Origin: an uncultured Elusimicrobia bacterium
GTDB lineage: Bacteria > Elusimicrobiota > Elusimicrobia > UBA1565 > UBA9628
Reading direction: 5' to 3'
DNA: 64,000 bases
Assembly: GCA_964537395.1 (NCBI GenBank)
Contig: CAZIBN010000004.1
Span: 2,115 to 66,114, forward strand
Shown: positions 4,388-24,627 of the stretch, piece by piece
Position numbering within the stretch: position 1 is the stretch's first letter
How the letters are laid out: each line of letters opens with the position of its first letter
The notes under the pieces: generated by a model
Told to the model about the DNA's origin: nothing
The model's input: only the letters and a program-made list of their open reading frames with translations
Database searches by the model: none
Program-made: the position numbers and the translations under genes

Positions 4388-5446
4388 ATGGCGAACATCA
4401 AGAAGTCGGACCTGCTCAAGGAAGAGATCGAACATATCGACATCACCAAGCACGACATGCGTCCTCTCGTCGAGTCCTTCTCGAAGATGTCCTTCTCCGC
4501 CCGCGACCTCGCGCGCGCGAGCACCATCTACGACAAGATGCTCGCCGACAAGGAATGCGGGGTGATCCTCTGCCTTGCCGGTTCCCTGTTCTCCGCCGGG
4601 CTCAAGAAGATCGTCTGGCAGATGGTCGAGAGCAACATGGTGGACGCGATCGTCTCCACCGGCGCGAACATCGTCGACCAGGATTTCTTCGAGGCCCTCG
4701 GCTACAAGCACTACCGCGGCTCGAAGTGGGAAGACGACATGGCCCTTCGCGGCGCGCGCATCGACCGCATCTACGACACCTTCATCGACGAGGACCAGCT
4801 CGGCGCCTGCGACAACGTCATCTCCGACCTCATCGGGACGCTGAAGCCGAAGCCGTACTCCTCGCGCGAGATCGTCGAAGAGATGGGCAAGTATCTCGTG
4901 AAGAAGTGCAAGGTCAAGGACTCGATCGTGCTGTCCGCGTACAAGAAGGGCGTTCCGATCTTCATCCCCGCCCTCTCGGACTGCTCGGCCGGCTTCGGCT
5001 TCCTGCACCACCAGTGGCACAATCCCGACAGCCACGCCTCGATCGACTCCGCCAAGGACTTCCGCGAGCTGGTTCGCGTGAAGCTCGCCTGCGGCGACAC
5101 CGGCCTCCTGATGATCGGCGGCGGCGTCCCGAAGAACTTCGCCCAGGATGTGACGGTCGGCGCCGAGATGATCGGCCTCGACCCCATCATGCACAAGTAC
5201 GCGGTGCAGATCACCGTGGCCGACGAGCGCGACGGCGCGCTCTCCGGCTCGACTCTGCGCGAGGCGTGCTCGTGGGGCAAGGTCGCGGTCACCGACGAGC
5301 AGATGGTGTTCTCCGAGGCCACCTTGGCCCTCCCCATCCTCGCGGGCTACGGCTGGCACAAGGGCAACTGGAAGAAGCGCCGCGAGCGCCGCTTCAACGC
5401 GTTGCTCAACGACGAGAAGGCGAAGATCCCCGCCGCCCTCCGCTAA
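4388..5446 (+). CDS. deoxyhypusine synthase-like protein (DHS/homospermidine-synthase-type fold)
   Basis: I trimmed the ORF to MANIKKSDLL because the upstream part of the 4202 ORF is AT-rich and does not look coding. It shows DHS family features: STGANIVDQDFFEA, GGGVPKNF, and the catalytic-lysine motif REACSWGKV (eukaryotic EAVSWGK). Confidence 0.85.
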   Translation: MANIKKSDLLKEEIEHIDITKHDMRPLVESFSKMSFSARDLARASTIYDKMLADKECGVILCLAGSLFSAGLKKIVWQMVESNMVDAIVSTGANIVDQDFFEALGYKHYRGSKWEDDMALRGARIDRIYDTFIDEDQLGACDNVISDLIGTLKPKPYSSREIVEEMGKYLVKKCKVKDSIVLSAYKKGVPIFIPALSDCSAGFGFLHHQWHNPDSHASIDSAKDFRELVRVKLACGDTGLLMIGGGVPKNFAQDVTVGAEMIGLDPIMHKYAVQITVADERDGALSGSTLREACSWGKVAVTDEQMVFSEATLALPILAGYGWHKGNWKKRRERRFNALLNDEKAKIPAALR

Positions 5447-5452
5447 AATCAC

Positions 5453-6307
5453 ATGGGTCGGGTCTATTCCGACCTCAAGACCGCCGAATACGGCGCCTCG
5501 GGACACCCCGAGGCGCCGTTTCGCATCAGGAAGACCTTCGACCGCCTCCAATCCGCCGGGCATGTATTGTTACCGCCGAAGGCGAAGGCCGTCGATACGG
5601 ACGTTATTCTTCTTCACGGCACGAACCACCTCGATTCAATCCGTTTGGGGACGTTCCAGGACGCGGACACGCCGTTCTTCCCGAACATCGCCGACATAAG
5701 CATGATCAGCCTGTCCGGCGCGCTCTCAGCCGCTGACGCGGCGCTCGCCGGAGAGCCGTCGTTCTCCCTGATGCGCCCGCCCGGCCATCACGCCGGCAAG
5801 GACAAGGTCGCCGGCTTCTGCTACCTGAATAATCTGGCCCTCGCCGTAGCGCGGCTTCAAAAAACAAAACCCGGACTGAAGGTCGGCATAATCGATTTTG
5901 ATGTCCACCACGGCGACGGCACCCAGGAGCTCGTGCTCGGCCGCGAGAACACGACCTTTCTCTCCCTCCACCAATACCCGCTTTATCCAGGAACGGGGCT
6001 CGACACCCGGGGCAACTGCTGGAACATCCCGCTCGAGGCGGGGACCTCCGGGGACTCCTGGCTTGAGGCTTTTGAACCCGCTTTCGGGCTCCTCCTCGAC
6101 ACGAAGCCCGATGTGCTCGCCGTGTCCGCCGGCTTCGACGCCTACAAAGGCGACCCGATCGCCGGGCTCAAGCTCGACCGCGGCACCTTCAAGCGCATCG
6201 GCTCTTTGCTCGCACAAACGAAGCTCCCGCGCTTCGCGACGCTCGAGGGCGGCTACTCCGAAGACCTCCCCCTTCTCGTCGAAAGCTTCCTGGATGGGTT
6301 CTTTTAG
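5453..6307 (+). CDS. histone deacetylase / acetylpolyamine amidohydrolase family protein
   Basis: 284 aa. Carries RPPGHHAG, DFDVHHGDGTQE and LEGGYS, the zinc-deacetylase family motifs. It starts 6 nt after the DHS-like gene. Confidence 0.85.
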   Translation: MGRVYSDLKTAEYGASGHPEAPFRIRKTFDRLQSAGHVLLPPKAKAVDTDVILLHGTNHLDSIRLGTFQDADTPFFPNIADISMISLSGALSAADAALAGEPSFSLMRPPGHHAGKDKVAGFCYLNNLALAVARLQKTKPGLKVGIIDFDVHHGDGTQELVLGRENTTFLSLHQYPLYPGTGLDTRGNCWNIPLEAGTSGDSWLEAFEPAFGLLLDTKPDVLAVSAGFDAYKGDPIAGLKLDRGTFKRIGSLLAQTKLPRFATLEGGYSEDLPLLVESFLDGFF

Positions 6308-6319
6308 CTAGAATCACTC

Positions 6320-7372
6320 ATGCTCGATTTCGACCCCAATTCCGCGCCCGGCGAAGACACCGGAGTCTTCGGACTCCCCCATAAAGAAAAGGATTCCGCG
6401 CTGGTCCTCGTTCCTGTGCCGTGGGAGGCGACCACCTCTTACGGCGGCGGCACTTCCAAGGGCCCCGCGGCGATCCTCGCGGCCAGCGGCCAGGTCGACC
6501 TGTTCGACGGCGAGGTGCATCGGCCGTACGAACCGGGGATCTTCATGAGGCCCGAATCCAGGGAGGTGCGGGCCTGGAACAAAACGGCGAAGGCCGCGGC
6601 GCAGAAGATCATCAAGGAAGGCGGGCGCATCGACGGGAATAAGAAGCTTCAGAAAGCGCTTCAGGTCGCGAATGACCTCGGCAGCAAGCTGAACGAATGG
6701 GTGTACCGCGAAACGAAGGGTCTCATGGACGCCGGAAAGATCGTGGGCATCGTCGGCGGGGACCACAGCGTGCCTTACGGCGCGTTCCGCGCCGCGGCGG
6801 AGCACCACGGCGATTTCGGATTGCTTCACTTCGACGCTCACTCCGACACGCGCGTCGCCTACGAGGGCTTCACCTGGTCGCACGCGTCCATCATGTACAA
6901 CGCGATGGAGAACATCCCTCAGATCTCCCGGATCGTCCAGGTCGGCATCCGCGACTTCTGCGAGCAGGAGCACGAGTTCACGCGCGCGCTGGGCGCACGC
7001 GCGAAAATCTTCCATGACCGCGACCTGGCCAAACGCCGTTTCGCCGGCGAGCCGTGGACGAAGACCGCAGGCGAGATCGTCGCCGCCCTGCCGCAGCAGG
7101 TCTGGATCACCTTCGACATCGACGGACTGGACCCGAAGCTATGCCCTCATACGGGCACGCCCGTCCCCGGCGGCCTCGAGCTGGCGGAGGCCGTGCACCT
7201 GATCGGGCTCGTCGCGCGCTCCGGGCGCAAAATCATCGGCTTCGACCTCAATGAGGTCTCCCCCGCGCCCGACGGCCGCGACGAGTGGGACGCCAACGTC
7301 GGCATGCGGCTGCTGTACAAGCTCATCGCCTGGACCTTCGTCAGCCGCGGCCTGCGCAAAGCCCGCGAATGA
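6320..7372 (+). CDS. ureohydrolase (agmatinase/arginase/formimidoylglutamase family)
   Basis: 350 aa. Carries the Mn-binding motifs GGDHSVPYG, HFDAHSDTR and TFDIDGLDP. Confidence 0.85.
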   Translation: MLDFDPNSAPGEDTGVFGLPHKEKDSALVLVPVPWEATTSYGGGTSKGPAAILAASGQVDLFDGEVHRPYEPGIFMRPESREVRAWNKTAKAAAQKIIKEGGRIDGNKKLQKALQVANDLGSKLNEWVYRETKGLMDAGKIVGIVGGDHSVPYGAFRAAAEHHGDFGLLHFDAHSDTRVAYEGFTWSHASIMYNAMENIPQISRIVQVGIRDFCEQEHEFTRALGARAKIFHDRDLAKRRFAGEPWTKTAGEIVAALPQQVWITFDIDGLDPKLCPHTGTPVPGGLELAEAVHLIGLVARSGRKIIGFDLNEVSPAPDGRDEWDANVGMRLLYKLIAWTFVSRGLRKARE

Positions 7373-8478
7373 AGATACTCGTGGTCATGGGCACGCGGCC
7401 CGAGGCCATCAAGCTCGCGCCGGTGATTCACGCCTTACGACGGCGCAGAGGCTTAAAAACGTTCGTGTGCGCGACGGCCCAGCACCGTGATTTGCTCGAT
7501 CAGGCGCTCCGTCTTTTTCGTCTGAAACCGGATTTCGATCTGAATCTGATGCGTACGGGACAAACCCCGAACGCGGTCGCCAAGCGAGTCATGAAGTCCC
7601 TCCCCCCCCTGCTCGCGCGCCTCAAGCCGGATATGGTGATCGTCCAGGGCGACACCACCACCGCCGCCGCGGCGGCGGTCTGCGCCGCGAAGCGGCGCAT
7701 TCCGGTCGCTCACGTGGAGGCCGGCCTTCGCTCGTTTGATTTCAAGGACCCGTATCCCGAGGAGCTCAATCGTGTCCTGATCGACTCGATCTCTTCTCTC
7801 GTTTTCCCCCCGACGTCCGCCGCACGCGCCAATCTCGTAAAAGAAAAATTAAATTGCCGGTCGATAATATTGACGGGGAACACCGTGGTCGACGCATTAA
7901 ATTCCGCCGCAGGCGGAAAAGCTCCAGGTCGCCATACCCCGCGCGAGGTGTTGGTGACCCTACACCGCCGCGAGATCCAAGGCGCGCCGTTAAAAAGAAT
8001 TTACACGTGTCTTCTCAAGCTCGTCAACCAACACGAAAATCTGTTGTTCGTCTATCCTGTACACCCCAATCCGTTGATCTTAAAAACCGCGAAGCGGATG
8101 CTCCAGCACCCGCGCATCCGTCTTCTCGACCCGCAGACGTATCCTGCGATGCTCGCTCTCCTCAAGCGCGCCCCGTTCGTCATCACCGATTCCGGCGGCC
8201 TACAAGAGGAGGCGGTCTGCCTCAGGACCCCCGTCCTCGTCGTACGCAATAAGACCGAGCGCCCCGAAGTCATCAAAAGCGGCGCGGGCCGTCTCGTCGG
8301 CCTCGATCCCAAGAAATTGGCCTTCTGGGTCGGGAAGCTCCTCAAGGATCCCGCGCTCCTTCGCCGCATGAGCCACACCCCAAACCCCTACGGCGACGGC
8401 CACGCCTCCGAACGCATCGCCGCCGGCGTCGCCCACTGGTTCGCGTTAGCCCCAAAGCCCAAGGACTGGAAACCATGA
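7369..8478 (+). CDS. wecB: UDP-N-acetylglucosamine 2-epimerase (non-hydrolysing type)
   Basis: Trimmed to MKILVVMGTRPEAIKLAPV, the hallmark N-terminus. ATGA overlap with the ureohydrolase stop. Later motifs HVEAGLRS and DSGGLQEEA are present. Confidence 0.88.
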   Translation: MKILVVMGTRPEAIKLAPVIHALRRRRGLKTFVCATAQHRDLLDQALRLFRLKPDFDLNLMRTGQTPNAVAKRVMKSLPPLLARLKPDMVIVQGDTTTAAAAAVCAAKRRIPVAHVEAGLRSFDFKDPYPEELNRVLIDSISSLVFPPTSAARANLVKEKLNCRSIILTGNTVVDALNSAAGGKAPGRHTPREVLVTLHRREIQGAPLKRIYTCLLKLVNQHENLLFVYPVHPNPLILKTAKRMLQHPRIRLLDPQTYPAMLALLKRAPFVITDSGGLQEEAVCLRTPVLVVRNKTERPEVIKSGAGRLVGLDPKKLAFWVGKLLKDPALLRRMSHTPNPYGDGHASERIAAGVAHWFALAPKPKDWKP

Positions 8479-9515
8479 CCTCTATCATCAAGGCCGTTTA
8501 CCGTCGCCTCTTCCCAGTAGCCCTGCGAGAAAGAATCTCCTATCTCCGCGAGTGGGGCGCTGTCGTCGTCAACTACGCTCTGATGCGCTCGACCATCATG
8601 AATCTGTTCCATTCCTTCGGCGCCTGGCCGCACGCCCTCTACATCGAAGGCACCAATATCTGCAACGCCGCCTGCGTCTTTTGTGCCTACCCGCAGATGG
8701 AGCGCCCCAAGGTCACCATGCCGATGAAGACGTTCCAGAAGGCGATCGACGAGTACCTCGCCTTAGGTCCGGCAGAGGTGGATCTCACCCCCATCGTCGG
8801 CGACCCCTTCGCCGATAAGCACCTCTTCGAGCGCCTGGACGATCTTTCCGCGCGGCCGGGCGTCAAAAAATTCCATTTCTACACCAACGCGATCCTGATG
8901 AAGCCGTCCCAGATCGAGAGGCTCATGCCCTATGGGGAGCGCTTCCGTATTTTCTGCTCGTTCGGCGGCTTCACCCCGGAGGTCTATCACCGGATCATGG
9001 GCGTCGATAAATTCCACGAGGCCGTGGCCGGCATCCGCGCCCTCATCGAGGCGAAGATCCGCACCGGATCTAAAATCCAGATCCAGGTCAACCTCCGCGT
9101 GCCCAAGGGCGACGAGGGCGGCGAGTTCTGGGACTACCTCCAACTCCGAAAAAAGGAAGGCGCCATCACCCTCGACGGCGTGGCCGACTACGACAACTGG
9201 GGCGGGAAGATCCTCAATGAGACGCTGAACGCGGCCGGCTTGATCCCCAAGCCTCCCCCCGTGCACCAGGGCGCATGCCGCCGACTCCTCACCGGCCCGG
9301 TCATCCTCTCCGACGGGCGGGTCAACGCCTGCTGCTGCCGGGACGTGGAGGCCACGCTCATCATCGGGGACATCAACAAGGAGCCTCTGAAAGAAATCCT
9401 CTCCGGGCCGGGCCTCAAGGATCTGTTGAGGCGTCACGCGCAGGGGGATTTCCCCGAGATCTGCAAAACCTGCACGAAATACCAGTCCGTGTGGGCCGGG
9501 GTCAGGGACGAGTAG
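8475..9515 (+). CDS. radical SAM protein with Cys-rich C-terminal (SPASM/twitch-like) region
   Basis: 346 aa. CNAACVFC is a CX3CX2C cluster motif. The C-terminus has ACRRL...NACCCRD...CKTCTKY. ATGA overlap with the wecB stop. Confidence 0.8.
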   Translation: MTSIIKAVYRRLFPVALRERISYLREWGAVVVNYALMRSTIMNLFHSFGAWPHALYIEGTNICNAACVFCAYPQMERPKVTMPMKTFQKAIDEYLALGPAEVDLTPIVGDPFADKHLFERLDDLSARPGVKKFHFYTNAILMKPSQIERLMPYGERFRIFCSFGGFTPEVYHRIMGVDKFHEAVAGIRALIEAKIRTGSKIQIQVNLRVPKGDEGGEFWDYLQLRKKEGAITLDGVADYDNWGGKILNETLNAAGLIPKPPPVHQGACRRLLTGPVILSDGRVNACCCRDVEATLIIGDINKEPLKEILSGPGLKDLLRRHAQGDFPEICKTCTKYQSVWAGVRDE

Positions 9516-13344: not shown

Positions 13345-13899
13345 CTAGCGGCGGCCGCGGCGCTGAATGTTCTCTCCGCGCTTCTCACGGCGCTCGCCCC
13401 GGCGCTCCATGCGCTCGCCCCGCTTTTCACGACGTTCGCCCTGCTTTTCCATGCGCTCGCCGCGCTTCTCACGGCGCTCGCCCTGGTTCTCGAGCCTCTC
13501 CCCCTTATTTTCCATACGCTCGGCGGCCTTGTCCTTGCCTTCAGCCTCAAACTTTTCGGATTTTTCCTGGAACTTCTCGCCGCGCTCCTGCATGCGCTCG
13601 CCCTGCTCGTCCAGCTTCTCTCCGCGTTCCTCGCGGCGTTCGCCCTGGCGCTGCATGCGTTCGCCTTTCTTTTGCTTGCGCTCGCCCTGCTTCTCGAGAC
13701 GCGCACCGCGGTTCCCGAGCGCGGGGCTGGCGGGGATCGCGCCGCCGCCCGGGGCTCCGGGCTGGGCCGGCGTCACGCCGGACGGCGTCTGCTGGACGCC
13801 GTCGCCGCTCGTCTCATCGGTCGCGGCATCCCCGGCGCGAGCTGAAACTGAAACCATTAAAACGATCGCAAGCAACGCCCAAGTCATCTTATTCATCAT
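13345..13899 (-). CDS. secreted, highly charged GER-heptad repeat protein
   Basis: AGGGGGA Shine-Dalgarno and signal peptide MMNKMTWALLAIVLMVSVSARA, then a Pro/Gly linker, then about 17 heptads of type GER(R/M)E(K/R)x. It is the only one of four overlapping ORFs here with a start context and a signal peptide. Confidence 0.65.
   Translation of the reverse strand: MMNKMTWALLAIVLMVSVSARAGDAATDETSGDGVQQTPSGVTPAQPGAPGGGAIPASPALGNRGARLEKQGERKQKKGERMQRQGERREERGEKLDEQGERMQERGEKFQEKSEKFEAEGKDKAAERMENKGERLENQGERREKRGERMEKQGERREKRGERMERRGERREKRGENIQRRGRR
13348..13707. repeat. 21-bp periodic tandem repeat (coding)
   Basis: The repeat is visible as reiterated gcgctc[g/a]cc..cgcttctc units. It keeps four frames open on both strands. 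Confidence 0.8.
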
Positions 13900-13910
13900 T
13901 CCCCCTTTGA

Positions 13911-15260
13911 TCACACCCGTTCGAAATAACGGCCGCGCTCCCAGTCGGTGACGGCCCGGTCGGAAGCCGCCTGCTCGGCCTTGGCCGCATGCAGATAATG
14001 AGCGTGCACCTCGTCGCCGAAGGCCGCCCGCGCGGCGGCCGACTTCTCAAAGAGTCCGATCGCCTCGGTCAAGGTCTTGGGCACCGGAGAGACCTTCGCC
14101 TTGTAGGCGTCGCCCGCGAGCTCCGCCGGCGGGTCGATCTTCTTTTCGATGCCGTAAAGGCCCGCGGCGATGGTGGCAGCCAGCGCGAGATAAGGATTGG
14201 CGTCCGCGCCGGGGATGCGGTTCTCGATGCGCAGAGAGTCCCCCTCCCCCACGACCCGGTAGCCGCAGGTCCGGTTGTCCCGCGCCCAGGCGATGCGCGT
14301 CGGCGCGAAGGTCGCGGCCTGGTACCTCTTATAGGAGTTGACCGTTGGTGCGAAGCACAAGGAAAACTCTCGCGCGAGCGCCATCGCTCCGCCGAGGAAC
14401 CAGCGGAATTCCTTGGTAGGCTTGCCGCCGGACGAGAACATCGAGCGTCGGCCGGCTTTATCCCACAAGCTCGCGTGAATATGGCACGAGGAGCCGGCGA
14501 GCTTGTCGCTGTATTTCGCCATAAAGGTCAGCGACGCCCCCTTCTGCATCGCGATCTCCTTGGCGCCGTGCTTGTACACGGTGTGGAGGTCGGCCATCTG
14601 GACCGGGTCGGAGTACTCGAGGTTGATCTCGTGCTGCCCGGGGCCCCACTCGCCCTTCGAGTTCTCGATCGGCACGCCGGAGGCTTCCATCAGGTTGCGG
14701 ATCTCCCCCACCACCGGCTCCTCGCGAGTGCCCTGGAGGATGTGGTAGTCCTCGATGTAGGTTCCATAATGCTCCAACCCCGTCCAATTCTTCTTCTGGG
14801 CGGTTTCATAAGTCTCGCGAAGCAGATAGAACTCGAGCTCGGTCGCCATCTTGAGCGACCAGCCTTTCGCCGCCGCGCGCGCGACCTGGTCCTTCAATAT
14901 CTGGCGCGGGGAGACTTTGATCGGATTCTCGTGCGCCGAATCCATCACGTCGGCGATGACGAGCGCCGTGCCGGGCTGCCAGGCCAGCGCCCGCCACGTC
15001 GAGAAATCGGGCATGAGAGCGAAGTCCTGATAGCCTTTGTCCCAGCTCGTCAGCGCGAAGCCGGGCACCGGATCCATCTCCATGTCGACGGTGAGCAGAT
15101 AGGCGCAGGCGTGCGTGCCGTGGGCCGCGACCGACTTCGCGAAATGACGGGCGGTGAAGCGCTTACCGATCCAGCGGCCCTGCATGTCGGGCATCGCGAG
15201 GATCACCGTGTGGAACTTTCCCTTCTTGATGGCGGCCAACAAGGACGCGGCATTGTTCAT
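13911..15260 (-). CDS. glutamine synthetase family protein (GlnA-like; possible gamma-glutamyl-amine ligase)
   Basis: Trimmed to MNNAASLL because the upstream codons are AT-rich. Carries GS catalytic-domain motifs GSSCHIHASLWD, NSYKRY and RIENRIPGADANPYLALAA. Confidence 0.85.
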   Translation of the reverse strand: MNNAASLLAAIKKGKFHTVILAMPDMQGRWIGKRFTARHFAKSVAAHGTHACAYLLTVDMEMDPVPGFALTSWDKGYQDFALMPDFSTWRALAWQPGTALVIADVMDSAHENPIKVSPRQILKDQVARAAAKGWSLKMATELEFYLLRETYETAQKKNWTGLEHYGTYIEDYHILQGTREEPVVGEIRNLMEASGVPIENSKGEWGPGQHEINLEYSDPVQMADLHTVYKHGAKEIAMQKGASLTFMAKYSDKLAGSSCHIHASLWDKAGRRSMFSSGGKPTKEFRWFLGGAMALAREFSLCFAPTVNSYKRYQAATFAPTRIAWARDNRTCGYRVVGEGDSLRIENRIPGADANPYLALAATIAAGLYGIEKKIDPPAELAGDAYKAKVSPVPKTLTEAIGLFEKSAAARAAFGDEVHAHYLHAAKAEQAASDRAVTDWERGRYFERV

Positions 15261-20089: not shown

Positions 20090-20116
20090 ACGCGCGCCGG
20101 GCCTTTCGGGTAGAAT
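20087..20116 (+). promoter_or_regulatory. promoter with -10 TAGAAT 6 nt before the ATG (leaderless candidate)
   Basis: TAGACG (20087-20092), 18-nt spacer, TAGAAT (20111-20116), ATG at 20123. Confidence 0.5.
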
Positions 20117-20122
20117 CGGCGC

Positions 20123-20620
20123 ATGACCAACATCCTCGCCGTCGCCGCGCTGATCGCCTCTCAGATGGGAGCGCCGCTCCCCGCCGACACCCCCGCCGTC
20201 GTCGTGCCGGTCGCGACGGCGAAAGCCGCTGCAGCGCCCAGCGCCGCCCTGAGCTCCGGATACATCTCGGCCTCGGGCAACCTGACCGGCTCCGGCTATC
20301 TGCAGTGCCATTCGGGCTGGATGAACGGATCGATCAATCTCAGCGCCCAGATGTCGGTCAACGGCCCTGACGGCGTACACGGGACTGTTCCTGTCTCAGG
20401 CTATGTCCACCTGAGCGGCTCATGCCAGAACGGGTCAGGCTTTGTGAACGGATCCGCGTCGGTGAACGGCTATGGCACCCTCTATACGCGTGAAGGCAAG
20501 CGCGCCGGAACGGTCAACCTCAACGGTTCGGTGTTCGTCAACCAGTACGCCTCCGGCTACCTGTGGGTCAACCAGTACGCGAACGTGAGCGGCTACTTCA
20601 CCGCCGATCCCGCGAACTAG
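20123..20620 (+). CDS. hypothetical secreted Gly/Ser/Asn-repeat protein (165 aa)
   Basis: Hydrophobic N-terminus followed by reiterated (S/N)G(S/Y)..VNG units (SGYISASGNLTGSGYL, NGSGFVNGSASVNGYG, NLNGSVFVNQYASGYLWVNQYANVSGY). Confidence 0.6.
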   Translation: MTNILAVAALIASQMGAPLPADTPAVVVPVATAKAAAAPSAALSSGYISASGNLTGSGYLQCHSGWMNGSINLSAQMSVNGPDGVHGTVPVSGYVHLSGSCQNGSGFVNGSASVNGYGTLYTREGKRAGTVNLNGSVFVNQYASGYLWVNQYANVSGYFTADPAN

Positions 20621-21465
20621 CGTCCGATCGCCGTCTTGAGGAAGTTCGGGAGAGCGAAGCAGGCGGCGTGTATCTCGGCGTTATACCACCGAAGCTTCAG
20701 CTTCGAAGCCTTGACGCGCGCCGGGCGGAAGTCCTTCAACGGATGAAGACCCTTCGTCGCGAAGGTGAACGCCCACAGACCACCGGGATAGGTCAGGTTG
20801 TTGAACAGGCAGACCTCGACGACAGGAAATATTTTTTTGGTGATTCTAAACAGATTTTTGATCGTCGAGATCTCATAGAACGGTGACCCCGCCTGGCTGG
20901 CCACGACGCCGTCCTCGGTCAGAATCCTCTTCACGTTCATGTAGAACGAGGGCCCGAACAGCTCCGCGGCCGGCCCGAAGGGCTCCGTCGAGTCCACGAT
21001 CACGACGTCGAACTTCTCGTTCGTCTCCGCAACGAACTTCACGCCATCGTCGATAAGCACTGTTGCCCGTCTATCGGAGAGAGCTCCCGCCGTCTGCGGA
21101 ATGTGCTTTCGCGAGGCGGAAACCACGAGGCCATCGATCTCGACCAAGGTGCAGCTCTCCACCGTCTTATGCCGCAGCACCTCTCGCACGGTGCCGCCGT
21201 CGCCGCCCCCGATGACGAGCACGCGGCGGGGCTTGGGGTGCAGGAACAAGGCGGGGTGCGCGATCATCTCGTGATAGACGAACTCGTCGCGCTCGGAGAC
21301 CATCGTCATGCCGTCGATAAGCAAAAGCTTTCCGTGGCCGGCGGTCTCCACAACCTCGACGGTCTGAAACGGGCTCTTGCCCTTAAAAAGACGCTTCTTG
21401 AGCTTAAAGCTCGTCCGCACGATGCCCTGGTAGACCTCGTCCACCCAGACGGTCTTTTTGCTCAC
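20617..21465 (-). CDS. speE: spermidine synthase / polyamine aminopropyltransferase
   Basis: 282 aa. Carries FQTVEVVETAGHGKLLLIDG, VLVIGGGDGGTVREV and VIVDSTEPFGPA. Confidence 0.92.
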   Translation of the reverse strand: MSKKTVWVDEVYQGIVRTSFKLKKRLFKGKSPFQTVEVVETAGHGKLLLIDGMTMVSERDEFVYHEMIAHPALFLHPKPRRVLVIGGGDGGTVREVLRHKTVESCTLVEIDGLVVSASRKHIPQTAGALSDRRATVLIDDGVKFVAETNEKFDVVIVDSTEPFGPAAELFGPSFYMNVKRILTEDGVVASQAGSPFYEISTIKNLFRITKKIFPVVEVCLFNNLTYPGGLWAFTFATKGLHPLKDFRPARVKASKLKLRWYNAEIHAACFALPNFLKTAIGR

Positions 21466-22400
21466 AGGACGATCTCGACGGCGGGGGCCGCCCCTTCGAC
21501 CGGCTTGAAGTGATGGTCGAAGGTCACGCGATAGCCGCAGGACAGGTTTTGGCGCACCGCGCGCTTGATCGGATAGTAGCAGCGGATCTTCTGCCGCGAC
21601 GCCTGCGGCTGGAAGAGGATGACATCGCAGGACTGCGGCTTGAACAGGTCGAGCACGCGCGTGATGGTCTCGTTGGCGTCGCCCTCGACCGCGTTCGTCT
21701 CGAAGCTCACGTACGAGCCGATCTTCTGCGGCGTCACATGGATGGTGTAGTACTTGGAGCCGCGGATCGCATTGAGCGAATAGCCCATCGGCTCGAACAG
21801 GTAGTCGTCCACCTGGAATCCCGGGAGGATCGACCAGACGCCGGACTTTTCCTTGATGAAATCCTTCTTGCGGGCAGGGCCGCTCATGAAGACCCGGGAG
21901 GCCTGAGGATCGATGCCATGCATCAGGATCTCGAGCGTCAGGTCCTCAGCCGCCGGCGCATACACCTTGTCCAGATGGAAAAGAAACACGTGGTGGTCGT
22001 CCCCGTCGCCGAAACGATAGGACTTCGCCGGCATGCGGTCGGTCAGGCGGCGGCAGTCGTCGAAGAAGTTCGAGGGCTGATATTCCTGGTGATGCGCGTT
22101 CTTGCGCTCGTAGACAAGATACTGGAACGCGTCCGTGCCGAAATCATCCACCAGCGCGATGACCGCGGCGACGAGGTCCGTACGGCCGCAGGTGATCATC
22201 GTCAGCCAGGTGTCGGTGACGAACAGGCTTGATTCGGACAGCAGGTACGCATCCATGGATTCATTCGAGATCGTCGACAGAACCTGCGCGTTAGCCTTCG
22301 CGACGATGCCTTTCCAATAGTCGTGACCGCGGGCCCGCAATGAGGGCAGCCCCGGCACCATGGCGAGCTCTACTTTCTTTTCTGGTCCTTCGAAAAACAT
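21462..22400 (-). CDS. speD: S-adenosylmethionine decarboxylase proenzyme, eukaryote-like (class 2) type
   Basis: 312 aa. Carries FEGPEKK, the autoprocessing motif YLLSESSLFV (human YVLSESSMFV), TCGRT (human TCGTT) and YVSFETN. ATGA-type overlap with speE. Confidence 0.85.
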   Translation of the reverse strand: MFFEGPEKKVELAMVPGLPSLRARGHDYWKGIVAKANAQVLSTISNESMDAYLLSESSLFVTDTWLTMITCGRTDLVAAVIALVDDFGTDAFQYLVYERKNAHHQEYQPSNFFDDCRRLTDRMPAKSYRFGDGDDHHVFLFHLDKVYAPAAEDLTLEILMHGIDPQASRVFMSGPARKKDFIKEKSGVWSILPGFQVDDYLFEPMGYSLNAIRGSKYYTIHVTPQKIGSYVSFETNAVEGDANETITRVLDLFKPQSCDVILFQPQASRQKIRCYYPIKRAVRQNLSCGYRVTFDHHFKPVEGAAPAVEIVL

Positions 22401-22814
22401 CTAACGTGTCCTCTTATTACGTGCGGCCACTTCCTTCTCGCGCAATGCTCGCTCGCCGGCCTTGATCGACTTCCAGTTCGCCAGAACTTCCTTCGAGTTC
22501 TTGAAGGTCCGCGTGCGGCCGAAAACATGAGGGTGGCGGCGAATGAGCTTCTTAGCCTGGCTCTCGGCCACCGTGTCGAGATCGAAGCGCTTCTTTCCCA
22601 GACGCGCGAGAAAGAGGACGTGGAAAAGGATGTCGCCCAGCTCGTCCTCGATCTCATGCCAGCGCCCACCCGCGAGCGCGTCGGCCAGCTCAGCCGACTC
22701 CTCGCGAAGGAAGGGGATCAAGGTCTTGTGCGTCTGCTCCCGGTCCCAAGGGCAGCCTTTCGGGCCCAGAAGCTTGGCCACGACGGCGTCGAGCCTTCGG
22801 ATTCCCTTGGCCAT
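22401..22814 (-). CDS. mazG: MazG-type nucleoside triphosphate pyrophosphohydrolase (small form)
   Basis: Trimmed to MAKGIRRLD, 2 nt after the serS stop. Carries CPWDREQTHKTL, EESAELADA, EDELGDILFHVLF and IRRHPHVF. Confidence 0.85.
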   Translation of the reverse strand: MAKGIRRLDAVVAKLLGPKGCPWDREQTHKTLIPFLREESAELADALAGGRWHEIEDELGDILFHVLFLARLGKKRFDLDTVAESQAKKLIRRHPHVFGRTRTFKNSKEVLANWKSIKAGERALREKEVAARNKRTR

Positions 22815-22816
22815 GG

Positions 22817-24118
22817 TCAGGGAACCGCGATGCGCTCTGCGCCGAAGTAGGGCACCAGCGCCCGGGGGATGACAACGGAGCCGTCGGCTTGCTGGTTGTT
22901 CTCGAGGATCGAGGCCGCGAGGCGTCCGACGGCTACGCCCGAGCCGTTCAAGGTGTGGACGAGCTCGGCGGGAGCCTTCGCGTCGCGGCGGAAGCGCGCC
23001 GCCATGCGCCGCGCCTGAAAATCCGAGCAGTCGGAGCACGATGAGATCTCCCGGTATTTATTCTCCGACGGCATCCAGACCTCGATGTCGTAGGTTTTCT
23101 GGGAGGCGAAGCCCATGTCGCCGGTGCACAGATGTATCACCCGGTGAGGCAGCTCAAGGGCTTCAAGCGTTGCGGCGGCGTCCTTCGTCAGCTGCTCGAG
23201 CGCCGCGAGCGAGTCCTCCGGCTTCGTGATCCAGACCAGCTCGACCTTGTCGAACTGGTGGTTGCGGATGACGCCGCGCACATCCTTGCCGTAGGTGCCG
23301 GCCTCCTGACGGAAGCACGCGGTCAGAGCCGTCAGCTTCATCGGGAGCTTCTCGGCGGAGAGTATCTCCTCGCGCACCATGTTCGTCAGGACGATCTCTG
23401 AGGTGGAGATCAGGTAAAGCGTGCTGGTCTTTTCGCCTTCGACATTGACCGTCTTGTACATGTCGGCTTCGAACTTGGGAAGCTGGCTCGTGCCCTCGAG
23501 TATTTCCGGCAGGGCGAGATAAGGGGGGTGCACCTCGAGATAGCCGCTCTTTTCATGGCGATCGAGAAGGAAGTTGCCGAGCGCGCGGATGAGCCTGGCC
23601 CCCGGCCCCTGCCACAGAGCGAAGCGCGAGCCCGCGAGCTTGACGCCCGTCTTCATGTCGAGCGCCCCTATCTTTTCGCCGACGGTCTGATGGTCGAGCG
23701 GCTTGAACTCGAACTTCCGGGGCTCGCCAAAGGTCCTGACGAGAGGATTCTCCGTCTCGTCCTTGCCGACAGGGACGGATGAGTGGGGGATGTTGGGAAT
23801 ACTCATCGCTGCGTCCCGTATGAGCTTCTCAGAGGCCAGCAGCGCCGCTTCTTTATCGGTCATGCGGCTCTTGAGCTCTGACACCTCGGCCTTGAGCTTG
23901 TCGGCGGTCGCCGTATCCTTGGCGGCCATAGCCTTGCCGATCGACTGGGAAGCGGCGTTGCGCTGAGCGCGCATGGCCTCCACTTCGATCATGATCGCCC
24001 GATGCGCTTCATCGAGCTTCATCAGCTCGTCGAAAGCCGTTCCAAGCTTCGGATTGCGAGACGACAGCGCCTGGCGGACCTGATCTGTATTTTTGCGAGC
24101 GCCGCCGAGATCGATCAC
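22817..24118 (-). CDS. serS: seryl-tRNA synthetase
   Basis: 433 aa with an N-terminal coiled-coil arm and class II motifs (TSEIVLTNM, FRQEAGTYGKDVRG, GSGVAVGRLAASILENN). GTG start overlaps the upstream stop. Confidence 0.95.
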   Translation of the reverse strand: MIDLGGARKNTDQVRQALSSRNPKLGTAFDELMKLDEAHRAIMIEVEAMRAQRNAASQSIGKAMAAKDTATADKLKAEVSELKSRMTDKEAALLASEKLIRDAAMSIPNIPHSSVPVGKDETENPLVRTFGEPRKFEFKPLDHQTVGEKIGALDMKTGVKLAGSRFALWQGPGARLIRALGNFLLDRHEKSGYLEVHPPYLALPEILEGTSQLPKFEADMYKTVNVEGEKTSTLYLISTSEIVLTNMVREEILSAEKLPMKLTALTACFRQEAGTYGKDVRGVIRNHQFDKVELVWITKPEDSLAALEQLTKDAAATLEALELPHRVIHLCTGDMGFASQKTYDIEVWMPSENKYREISSCSDCSDFQARRMAARFRRDAKAPAELVHTLNGSGVAVGRLAASILENNQQADGSVVIPRALVPYFGAERIAVP

Positions 24119-24627
24119 TTCGCCACCTCCAAAATGCTCTCAAGAGACTGCACCGCGGCGTCGCCCTGGTGAGGCTCGATCATGACCTGGAGCTTCACGC
24201 GGTCCGGCCACCAACCGGCGCGGGCCAGCTTCGCCAGATACAGCTCCAGCGCGGGGGAGGTCGTCAGATAAACATCGAGAGTCTTGTTCGGGCCGACCTT
24301 CGGCACGCGCCTTTCATCCACCATGAACGGCACTCCCCAGGAGCCTTCGGGAGCGGCGCCTGCGATAGGCACGAGGCGAGCGATCATACTGTAGCGAAGC
24401 AGGATCCCCTCAGCCGCCTTCGGGCCCCGGTTCTTGAGCGTCAGGCGCGCGCGCAAACGCGTATCAAGCTTCGGCGGGCCGTCGAGCAACTGCCCGACGT
24501 CCTCCCAAACGGCAACGCGAGGCTTCTCCACGCGCGCGCGCTGCCAGGAGACGCTGTCCAGAAAAAGCTCGGCCCTGGCGCCCGCGGCCGTAAAGGCCGC
24601 GAACGCCAGGACCGCGATGAGACGCAT
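24115..24627 (-). CDS. hypothetical exported protein (170 aa)
   Basis: Trimmed to MRLIAVLAFAAFTAAGARA (signal peptide), which begins 13 nt after the gyrA stop. No recognisable family. Confidence 0.6.
   Translation of the reverse strand: MRLIAVLAFAAFTAAGARAELFLDSVSWQRARVEKPRVAVWEDVGQLLDGPPKLDTRLRARLTLKNRGPKAAEGILLRYSMIARLVPIAGAAPEGSWGVPFMVDERRVPKVGPNKTLDVYLTTSPALELYLAKLARAGWWPDRVKLQVMIEPHQGDAAVQSLESILEVAK

Follow-up and report, generated by a model that had tools for sequence, protein, structure and literature searches.

A eukaryote-type (class 2) S-adenosylmethionine decarboxylase gene coupled to speE in an uncultured Elusimicrobia bacterium

In a stretch of 64,000 nucleotides (nt) from an uncultured Elusimicrobia bacterium (GenBank assembly GCA_964537395.1, contig CAZIBN010000004.1, positions 2,115 to 66,114 of the forward strand; the whole stretch is called the window below), a gene for an S-adenosylmethionine decarboxylase (AdoMetDC) of the eukaryotic type (class 2), named speD here, lies directly ahead of the spermidine synthase gene speE. 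This locus raises the question of whether a eukaryote-type protein serves as the AdoMetDC of this bacterium, and of how its gene came to stand among core genes. With a probability of roughly nine in ten (0.88), the 312-amino-acid (aa) protein is a working pyruvoyl-dependent class 2 AdoMetDC and speD-speE is a module whose insertion behind mazG dates to about the base of the genus.

Family assignment, predicted fold and active-site residues

The open reading frame was found exactly as the initial annotation had placed it, with the same length and ATG start (Table 1), and the sequence motifs quoted there were located at residues 3 (FEGPEKK), 52 (YLLSESSLFV), 70 (TCGRT) and 230 (YVSFETN). In the Pfam scan, the protein matched PF01536 (SAM_decarbox), whose profile derives from eukaryotic AdoMetDC, with an E-value of 1.4e-63 and 215.5 bits (cut-off 22.2), residues 2-290 covering positions 3-322 of the 343 in the profile. 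No other Pfam family was found on the 312 aa, and the class 1 family PF02675 gave no match at E<=0.01. Comparison with the PDB by phmmer aligned residues 2-298 with residues 6-320 of the human proenzyme (1msv/1jl0, E about 3e-36), placing LSESS of the query on LSESS of the human protein and Glu56/Ser57 on human Glu67/Ser68. The agreement of the protein with class 2 AdoMetDC is far beyond chance. The proposed class 2 assignment thus stands after a search with both profiles, and the Glu-Ser site is aligned with the eukaryotic processing site in the phmmer alignment as well as in an alignment of 118 bacterial homologues.

An AlphaFold2 model built from 34 bacterial homologues reached a mean predicted local distance difference test score (pLDDT) of 91.6 and a predicted template modelling score (pTM) of 0.90. 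In the Foldseek search against the PDB, the human proenzyme chains 1jl0 and 1msv ranked at the top with template modelling (TM) scores of 0.85-0.87 (0.87 to 1jl0) at about 30% identity, followed by the processed human chains and then by the T. brucei and potato enzymes. Class 1b structures (T. maritima and A. aeolicus) matched one lobe of the model only, with about one third covered (TMq 0.27, TMt 0.63, E 7e-4). The model suggests a single chain in which two class-1b-like lobes form a four-layer alpha/beta sandwich.

No variation was seen among the 118 bacterial homologues at the positions equivalent to human F7, E8, E11, E15, E67, S68, C82, D174, T176, E178, F223, S229, H243 and E256, and the Glu-Ser site was also invariant in all 117 sequences of a mixed alignment of bacteria and eukaryotes. 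In the query, the catalytic and substrate-binding residues are E4, E7, C71, S208 and H221 (human E8, E11, C82, S229 and H243), and the adenine-stacking Phe pair is present as F3 and F202 (human F7 and F223). At the position of human Leu13 the query has Lys9, and Lys was found there in 73 of 75 bacteria. In the potato enzyme, an Arg at this position mimics bound putrescine, and by analogy Lys9 might have a comparable role.

Polyamine genes of the genome and alternative functions

The genome (3.69 Mb, 95% complete) contains a single PF01536 gene in a profile search of the whole assembly, and PF02675 was not detected anywhere in it at E<=0.1, while the controls were detected. The product of speE exceeded the cut-offs of both NF002010 (350 bits) and TIGR00417 (306 bits). 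Among 51 homologous loci, speE was found immediately downstream in 48, and for the remaining three the retrieved sequence stops about 2 kb or less past speD; this linkage persists across gene contexts, in other Elusimicrobiota, in Bdellovibrionota and in Desulfobacterales-type loci. In addition, one-chain fusions of class 2 AdoMetDC with SpeE of about 590-640 aa (PF01536, PF17284 and PF01564) were found, namely P0183 (633 aa), P0185, P0401, P0404, P0405, P0410, P0414 and P0417, and a fusion locus is present in a genome of the same order (Table 1). They differ from the AdoMetDC-aminopropyltransferase fusions cited in the literature consulted, which carry class 1b domains. The speD-speE pair appears to be a mobile two-gene module that is sometimes fused. 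In 61 genomes of the order, class 2 was found in 26 and class 1 in eight, and no genome had both.

A genuine AdoMetDC is predicted because the catalytic and adenine-binding set is intact, the protein is the only AdoMetDC in a genome with SpeE, and the gene is linked to speE and in relatives fused to it. Unlike the family, fold, residues, linkage, distribution and insertion site, the AdoMetDC activity, the self-processing and the amine substrate are predictions from sequence. The proenzyme would cut itself between Glu56 and Ser57 into a beta chain of about 6 kDa and an alpha chain of about 28 kDa, and Ser57 at the alpha chain's N-terminus would become the pyruvoyl cofactor. The enzyme would then decarboxylate S-adenosylmethionine (AdoMet) to decarboxylated AdoMet (dcAdoMet), which the coupled SpeE would use to aminopropylate putrescine (or agmatine) towards spermidine. 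The spermidine-type polyamine synthesis of the genome would be settled in this way, with a single class 2 AdoMetDC feeding SpeE.

Several results weigh against this function. The protein scored 162.2 bits with TIGR00535 (SAM_DCase), an NCBIfam equivalog model built on eukaryotic enzymes, under its equivalog cut-off of 233.15; this shortfall arises from a bacterial clade that is too divergent for the model. Human Glu247, the ribose-binding residue of the human structures, is replaced by Gln225. This position is not strictly conserved, with Gln in 86 and Glu in 30 of the 118 homologues, and in the mixed alignment with Q30/E26 in the other bacteria (those outside the Desulfobacterales type) and E36/Q6 in the eukaryotes. 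Human Lys80, the buried Lys of the eukaryotic enzymes (KTCG motif), is replaced by Ile69, and Ile or Leu was found there in 75 of 75 bacteria against Lys in 39 of 42 eukaryotes. As for the putrescine route, SpeA (743 bits) and an arginase (299 bits, contig C95) are encoded elsewhere in the genome, and a search of the genome gave no stand-alone agmatinase scoring over the curated cut-off. The two PF00491 hits of the genome are the C95 arginase and an arginase-fold gene inside the window.

SpeD homologues have repeatedly turned into ornithine decarboxylases (ODC) or arginine decarboxylases (ADC) (Li et al. 2023, PMC10407285). Instead of being an AdoMetDC, the protein could likewise have neofunctionalised into a pyruvoyl decarboxylase with ornithine or arginine as its substrate, as many class 1b SpeD homologues have, and both Gln225 and the missing clear agmatinase would suit such a change. 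The published cases, however, are class 1b proteins without a speE partner or beside a second speD, whereas the protein studied here is the sole AdoMetDC homologue of its genome, is predicted to be translationally coupled to speE and has relatives fused to SpeE. It also retains both adenine-stacking Phe residues and the entire catalytic set, the genome already has SpeA, and Gln and Glu alternate at the 247 position inside the speE-linked clade; we regard a changed substrate as very unlikely. Class 2 pseudoenzymes exist in trypanosomatids, and chains E and F of 5tvf were among the fold matches, which would speak for an inactive regulatory paralogue like the trypanosomatid prozyme. Such a paralogue, or a decaying relic of a transfer, is nevertheless scarcely credible, as the protein has kept the processing Ser and every catalytic residue, none of which varies among more than 100 homologues, the genome has no second active AdoMetDC to regulate, and an open frame was found in all loci of the genus and its closest relatives (63-98% identity).

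Eight SpdSyn-like domain hits were found in the genome, speE and seven more (Table 1). One of the seven is a PRK03612-type membrane aminopropyltransferase (675 bits). The open frames of another five span about 490-1140 aa and are mostly membrane-fused, and the one scanned passes the MFS_SpdSyn cut-off; the last is a weak hit in a 227-aa frame. All seven would rely on the single class 2 AdoMetDC for their dcAdoMet. A second polyamine locus was observed in the window at 4388-7372, 14 kb from speD-speE, with genes resembling deoxyhypusine synthase and histone deacetylase besides the arginase-fold gene.

Gene layout and insertion within the Elusimicrobiota

The positions of the genes and sites are given in Table 1. 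The overlap of speD and speE and the placement of serS-mazG upstream, both described in the initial annotation, were borne out by the sequence and by the Pfam assignments, and the eukaryote-type AdoMetDC in a speD-speE operon was correctly recognised there. The GTGA overlap, in which the speE start lies on the speD stop, points to translational coupling of the two genes. Between gyrA and speE, the minus strand showed no sigma-70-like promoter, and the missing internal promoter is compatible with, but no proof of, co-transcription of serS-mazG-speD-speE. On the same strand at 24570-24614, 27 nt past the gyrA stop, a 20-bp GC-rich hairpin followed by a T-run was observed within the signal-peptide-coding start of a small open reading frame upstream of serS; it may act as a terminator or attenuator separating gyrA from serS-mazG-speD-speE.

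Table 1. Coordinates of the features discussed, in the window unless another sequence is named
Feature	Sequence	Coordinates	Strand	Basis or remark
speD, class 2 AdoMetDC proenzyme gene (eukaryote-type)	window	21462..22400	-	312 aa, ATG start; PF01536, human AMD1, AlphaFold2 model
Glu56-Ser57 codons, predicted self-cleavage site	window	22230..22235	-	computed from the reading frame start; alignment with human Glu67/Ser68
speE, spermidine synthase / polyamine aminopropyltransferase	window	20617..21465	-	282 aa; PF01564 (206 bits) and PF17284
GTGA overlap (4 nt), speE GTG start on speD TGA stop	window	21462..21465	-	sequence read
AAGAGGA, Shine-Dalgarno-like site	window	22409..22415	-	sequence read; 8 nt upstream of speD ATG, within mazG 3' end
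mazG-family NTP pyrophosphohydrolase gene	window	22401..22814	-	PF03819 (83 bits); TAG stop abuts speD ATG
serS, seryl-tRNA synthetase gene	window	22817..24118	-	PF00587 and PF02403; directly upstream of mazG
Small repeat-protein gene	window	20123-20620		within the genus-specific DNA block 20090..22400
DNA present in the genus, absent between mazG and orf284/asd in sister genera	window	approx. 20090..22400	.	speD, speE and repeat-protein gene
Class 2 AdoMetDC::SpeE fusion locus	L050	509-2310		genome G144, same order
Further SpdSyn-like hit	C13	11077-11607		
Further SpdSyn-like hit	C90	4148-4609		
Further SpdSyn-like hit	C68	7140-7514		
Further SpdSyn-like hit	C21	15820-16272		
Further SpdSyn-like hit	C21	21057-21386		
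Further SpdSyn-like hit	C40	3109-3504		
Further SpdSyn-like hit	C49	19253-19666		

The order gyrA-serS-mazG-speD-speE was kept in 29 named assemblies of the genus of the window, with protein identities as low as 77%. Of the 12 loci from twelve sister genera in the family, none had speD-speE at the mazG junction, and all had serS next to gyrA. In the loci L222, L224, L225, L226 and L228, orf284 or asd comes straight after mazG, which leaves no space for speD-speE, and the extent of the genus-specific DNA was taken from the synteny of these five loci against the window and the loci L002-L032. Since the sister genera keep gyrA-serS-mazG directly against asd, speD-speE and the small repeat-protein gene entered at the 3' end of serS-mazG near the base of the genus, and mazG is the last gene of the ancestral serS-mazG unit. 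Afterwards the pair was inherited vertically in the genus and its composition adapted, the GC content at third codon positions (GC3) being 0.84 for speD and 0.82 for speE against 0.79-0.87 for the neighbours. The pair is old at the genus level only, and the locus presents a clean case of enzyme-class replacement through insertion of a two-gene module into a core operon.

The embedding among core genes had been taken as a sign of either an old acquisition or an ancestral long form of the enzyme. The embedding itself was confirmed by the gyrA-serS-mazG context and the host-like GC3; as a sign of ancestry it fails, as the sister genera lack speD-speE, and of the two origins offered the acquisition is supported by their empty sites. 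A gene ancestral in Elusimicrobiota, made patchy by many losses, would fit the location in a core-gene operon, the host-like composition and the occurrence of the class 2 gene in three of the genera sampled for the phylum and in seven of those sampled for the order. In the phylum sample, however, the gene was found in only 14 of 301 genomes and was missing from 95 of 98 genera, the mazG-asd junction is intact in the sister genera, and the distant Elusimicrobiota copies (<=72% identity) retain speE in other, unrelated gene contexts. Nor do the Elusimicrobiota stand together in the tree described below, where P0061 groups with a Bdellovibrionota sequence and P0078 stands apart. These scattered positions agree with several independent acquisitions, and descent of the gene from the ancestor of the phylum is highly improbable.

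Contamination with eukaryotic DNA was rejected, the same gene order being found in more than 30 independent assemblies including complete chromosomes. A natural swap of enzyme classes in G287, the one assembly of the genus that has a class 1b speD and lacks a class 2 gene, was considered and rejected as well: its class 1b gene lies in an unrelated context, and no serS hit was found in the assembly, in which the relevant region is thus missing. In G287 (locus L056, contig C70), a class 1b SpeD homologue of 129 aa (8194-8583) was observed about 5 kb from a SpdSyn-like gene for a 498-aa membrane protein (13691-15187), with a transposase-like open reading frame nearby. The cluster resembles those that Li and co-workers are said to have called 'polyamine-independent' in 2019, and the contig may be mis-binned. 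The order gyrA-serS-mazG-speD-speE was also observed, at 95% protein identity, in CALRXP010000052.1 (loci L006/L066), titled 'Candidatus Endomicrobium trichonymphae', an organism label that looks wrong for a block of this high-GC genus.

The bacterial class 2 family, its eukaryotic relatives and known systems

In a HMMER scan of 1.84 billion cluster representatives (50% identity), 1812 matches reached E<=1e-3 and 317 of them E<=1e-30. The top 150 all scored at least 171 bits, against 128 bits for human AMD1, and are mostly 300-340 aa long. Ten cluster representatives that were examined, mostly longer ones, lie on metagenome or bacterial contigs of up to 2.5 Mb. Pattern scans of one genome per species gave at least 519 and at least 533 confirmed class 2 stretches, and bacterial class 2 loci number about 500 or more in at least six phyla. 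The named hosts are Elusimicrobiota, Bdellovibrionota, Myxococcota (Polyangiales, Sandaracinaceae and Bradymonadia), Phycisphaerales, Eiseniibacteriota, an acidobacterial family and a large group of Desulfobacterales, among them the cultured Desulfonema magnum with a complete chromosome and assemblies that bear the name Desulfatirhabdium butyrativorans. The rarity of bacterial class 2 enzymes implied in the initial annotation was overstated, in view of these counts in species-representative genomes and of earlier publication. Among the Desulfobacterales-type proteins, P0412 (770 aa, L059 6001-8313) has a long extension with a faint AAA_31 match and has speE 300 nt downstream, and P0436 (536 aa) carries an HD domain.

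For the phylogeny, 117 sequences were used: 58 from assorted bacteria (including the query; the "other bacteria" below), 17 of the Desulfobacterales type, 25 from eukaryotes and 17 unlabelled ones that cluster with eukaryotes. The 25 eukaryotes, named or from eukaryote-only sources, are human and other vertebrates, Capitella, Oikopleura, three chytrids, Fonticula, Pelomyxa, Hondaea, Galdieria, a kinetoplastid-labelled transcript, MMETSP and EukProt entries and AdoMetDC-ODC fusions; the tree has no named representative of the land plants, the alveolates or the dikaryan fungi. They were sampled with the fusion protein P0183 as the query, scored on residues 1-300, whereas a human AMD1 query gave vertebrates only. 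The unrooted tree was computed with IQ-TREE from 312 columns under LG+C20+F+G4 with posterior mean site frequencies (PMSF).

The eukaryotes formed one clan (100/100) on a long stem (0.52), and the query fell outside it, in a clan of the other bacteria (100/97) whose internal backbone is poorly supported; the comparison with eukaryotic sequences that had been proposed for this gene thus places it on the bacterial side. The Desulfobacterales-type sequences attach between the two clans and are the nearest bacteria to the eukaryotes, and a FastTree analysis of 269 sequences gave the same three blocks. The sampled eukaryotes in the clan comprise Opisthokonta, Amoebozoa, a stramenopile, a red alga and a kinetoplastid. 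Seen from the bacterial side, their part of the tree resembles the species tree, with the kinetoplastid outermost, animals, Fonticula and chytrids together and Pelomyxa near them. As far as this sampling goes, the bacterial genes have no crown-eukaryote donor, and any transfer between the domains would be older than the split of the sampled supergroups. In minimal ancestor deviation (MAD) rooting, the eukaryote stem was best (0.185), followed very closely by the branch that has the other bacteria on one side and Desulfobacterales with eukaryotes on the other (0.189), and the best root within eukaryotes scored 0.246. The mean patristic distance was 2.15 within the other bacteria, 2.00 within eukaryotes and 2.96 between the other bacteria and the Desulfobacterales type.

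The position of the class 2 genes outside all sampled eukaryotes bears on the source of the eukaryotic polyamine pathway. Tentatively, and with less than even confidence, class 2 may be an old bacterial family of great diversity that has its centre in the former Deltaproteobacteria (Desulfobacterales, Myxococcota and Bdellovibrionota) and spread as speD-speE, the eukaryotes having received theirs from a Desulfobacterales-like lineage before the last eukaryotic common ancestor. This is suggested because the eukaryotes form one clan, the Desulfobacterales are nearest to it, MAD disfavours a root within eukaryotes and the bacterial diversity is at least as great as the eukaryotic. The unrooted tree agrees equally well with a transfer into bacteria from a stem-group or unsampled eukaryote, and an origin of the bacterial class 2 genes from a eukaryote is also the published view, according to a passage in PMC10407285.

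Two further observations were made in the mixed alignment and the tree. The Desulfobacterales-type proteins have Gln at the position of human Glu178 in 11 of 17 and Thr at that of Phe285 in 15 of 17, and because of these two replacements the equivalents of their putrescine pocket appear to be unlike those of both eukaryotes and other bacteria. Among the eukaryotes, the AdoMetDC-ODC fusions (PF01536 and PF02784) P0449, P0462, P0482, P0499, P0502, P0504 and P0505 group at 97/87, with the red alga Galdieria (P0505) and several protist transcripts among them.

The 2019 abstract of Li, Kurihara, Kim, Liang and Michael reportedly describes bacterial class 2 enzymes as active and phylogenetically limited; the family found here is larger and deeper than the "phylogenetically limited" picture of the literature. 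The literature search returned no paper linking AdoMetDC with Elusimicrobia, and its top results none linking AdoMetDC with Myxococcota, Desulfobacterales or Bdellovibrio. NCBI records name close homologues in Elusimicrobia, Bdellovibrionota and Myxococcota 'adenosylmethionine decarboxylase'. The 312-aa protein belongs to a published kind of enzyme, and the find is correct but fairly ordinary. Class 2 AdoMetDCs of bacteria had been reported earlier (Li et al. 2019, Biochem J 476:2579; reference 46 in PMC10407285), and the protein of the window resembles them as a single-chain bacterial PF01536 protein with an aminopropyltransferase partner. It differs from that set in belonging to an uncharacterised genus-level clade of Elusimicrobiota known from sequence.

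With human AMD1 (1jl0, 1msv and 1i7b), the protein shares the fold (TM 0.87), the Glu-Ser site, the catalytic Cys, Ser and His with the acidic residues, the adenine-stacking Phe pair and the acidic pocket (equivalents of D174, E178 and E256). Unlike AMD1 and the eukaryotic enzymes, with which it has about 28-31% identity, it is encoded in an operon with speE, and the domain of the sampled eukaryotic enzymes exceeds the bacterial one by about 45 residues (median 361 against 313 aa). Unlike AMD1, it has Ile69 for Lys80, K9 for Leu13 and Gln225 for Glu247. With the class 1b and 1a enzymes (SpeH/SpeD, PF02675; T. maritima 1tlu/1vr7) it would share the pyruvoyl chemistry, the self-processing at Ser and the SpeE partner, and each lobe of the model appears to resemble one of their protomers. 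It differs from class 1 proteins (about 115-270 aa) in giving no match to their profile and in being one chain instead of a dimer, and within the order the two classes stand in for each other genome by genome. The SpeD1-SpeD2 (SpeD-SpeDC) fusions of Desulfobacterales, Lentisphaerota and Omnitrophota, which Li et al. (2023, PMC10407285) put forward as a model of how class 2 arose, likewise have two SpeD-like lobes per chain, but they are recognisable as class 1b and some have two processing sites, whereas the protein of the window is a full class 2 AdoMetDC with one site.

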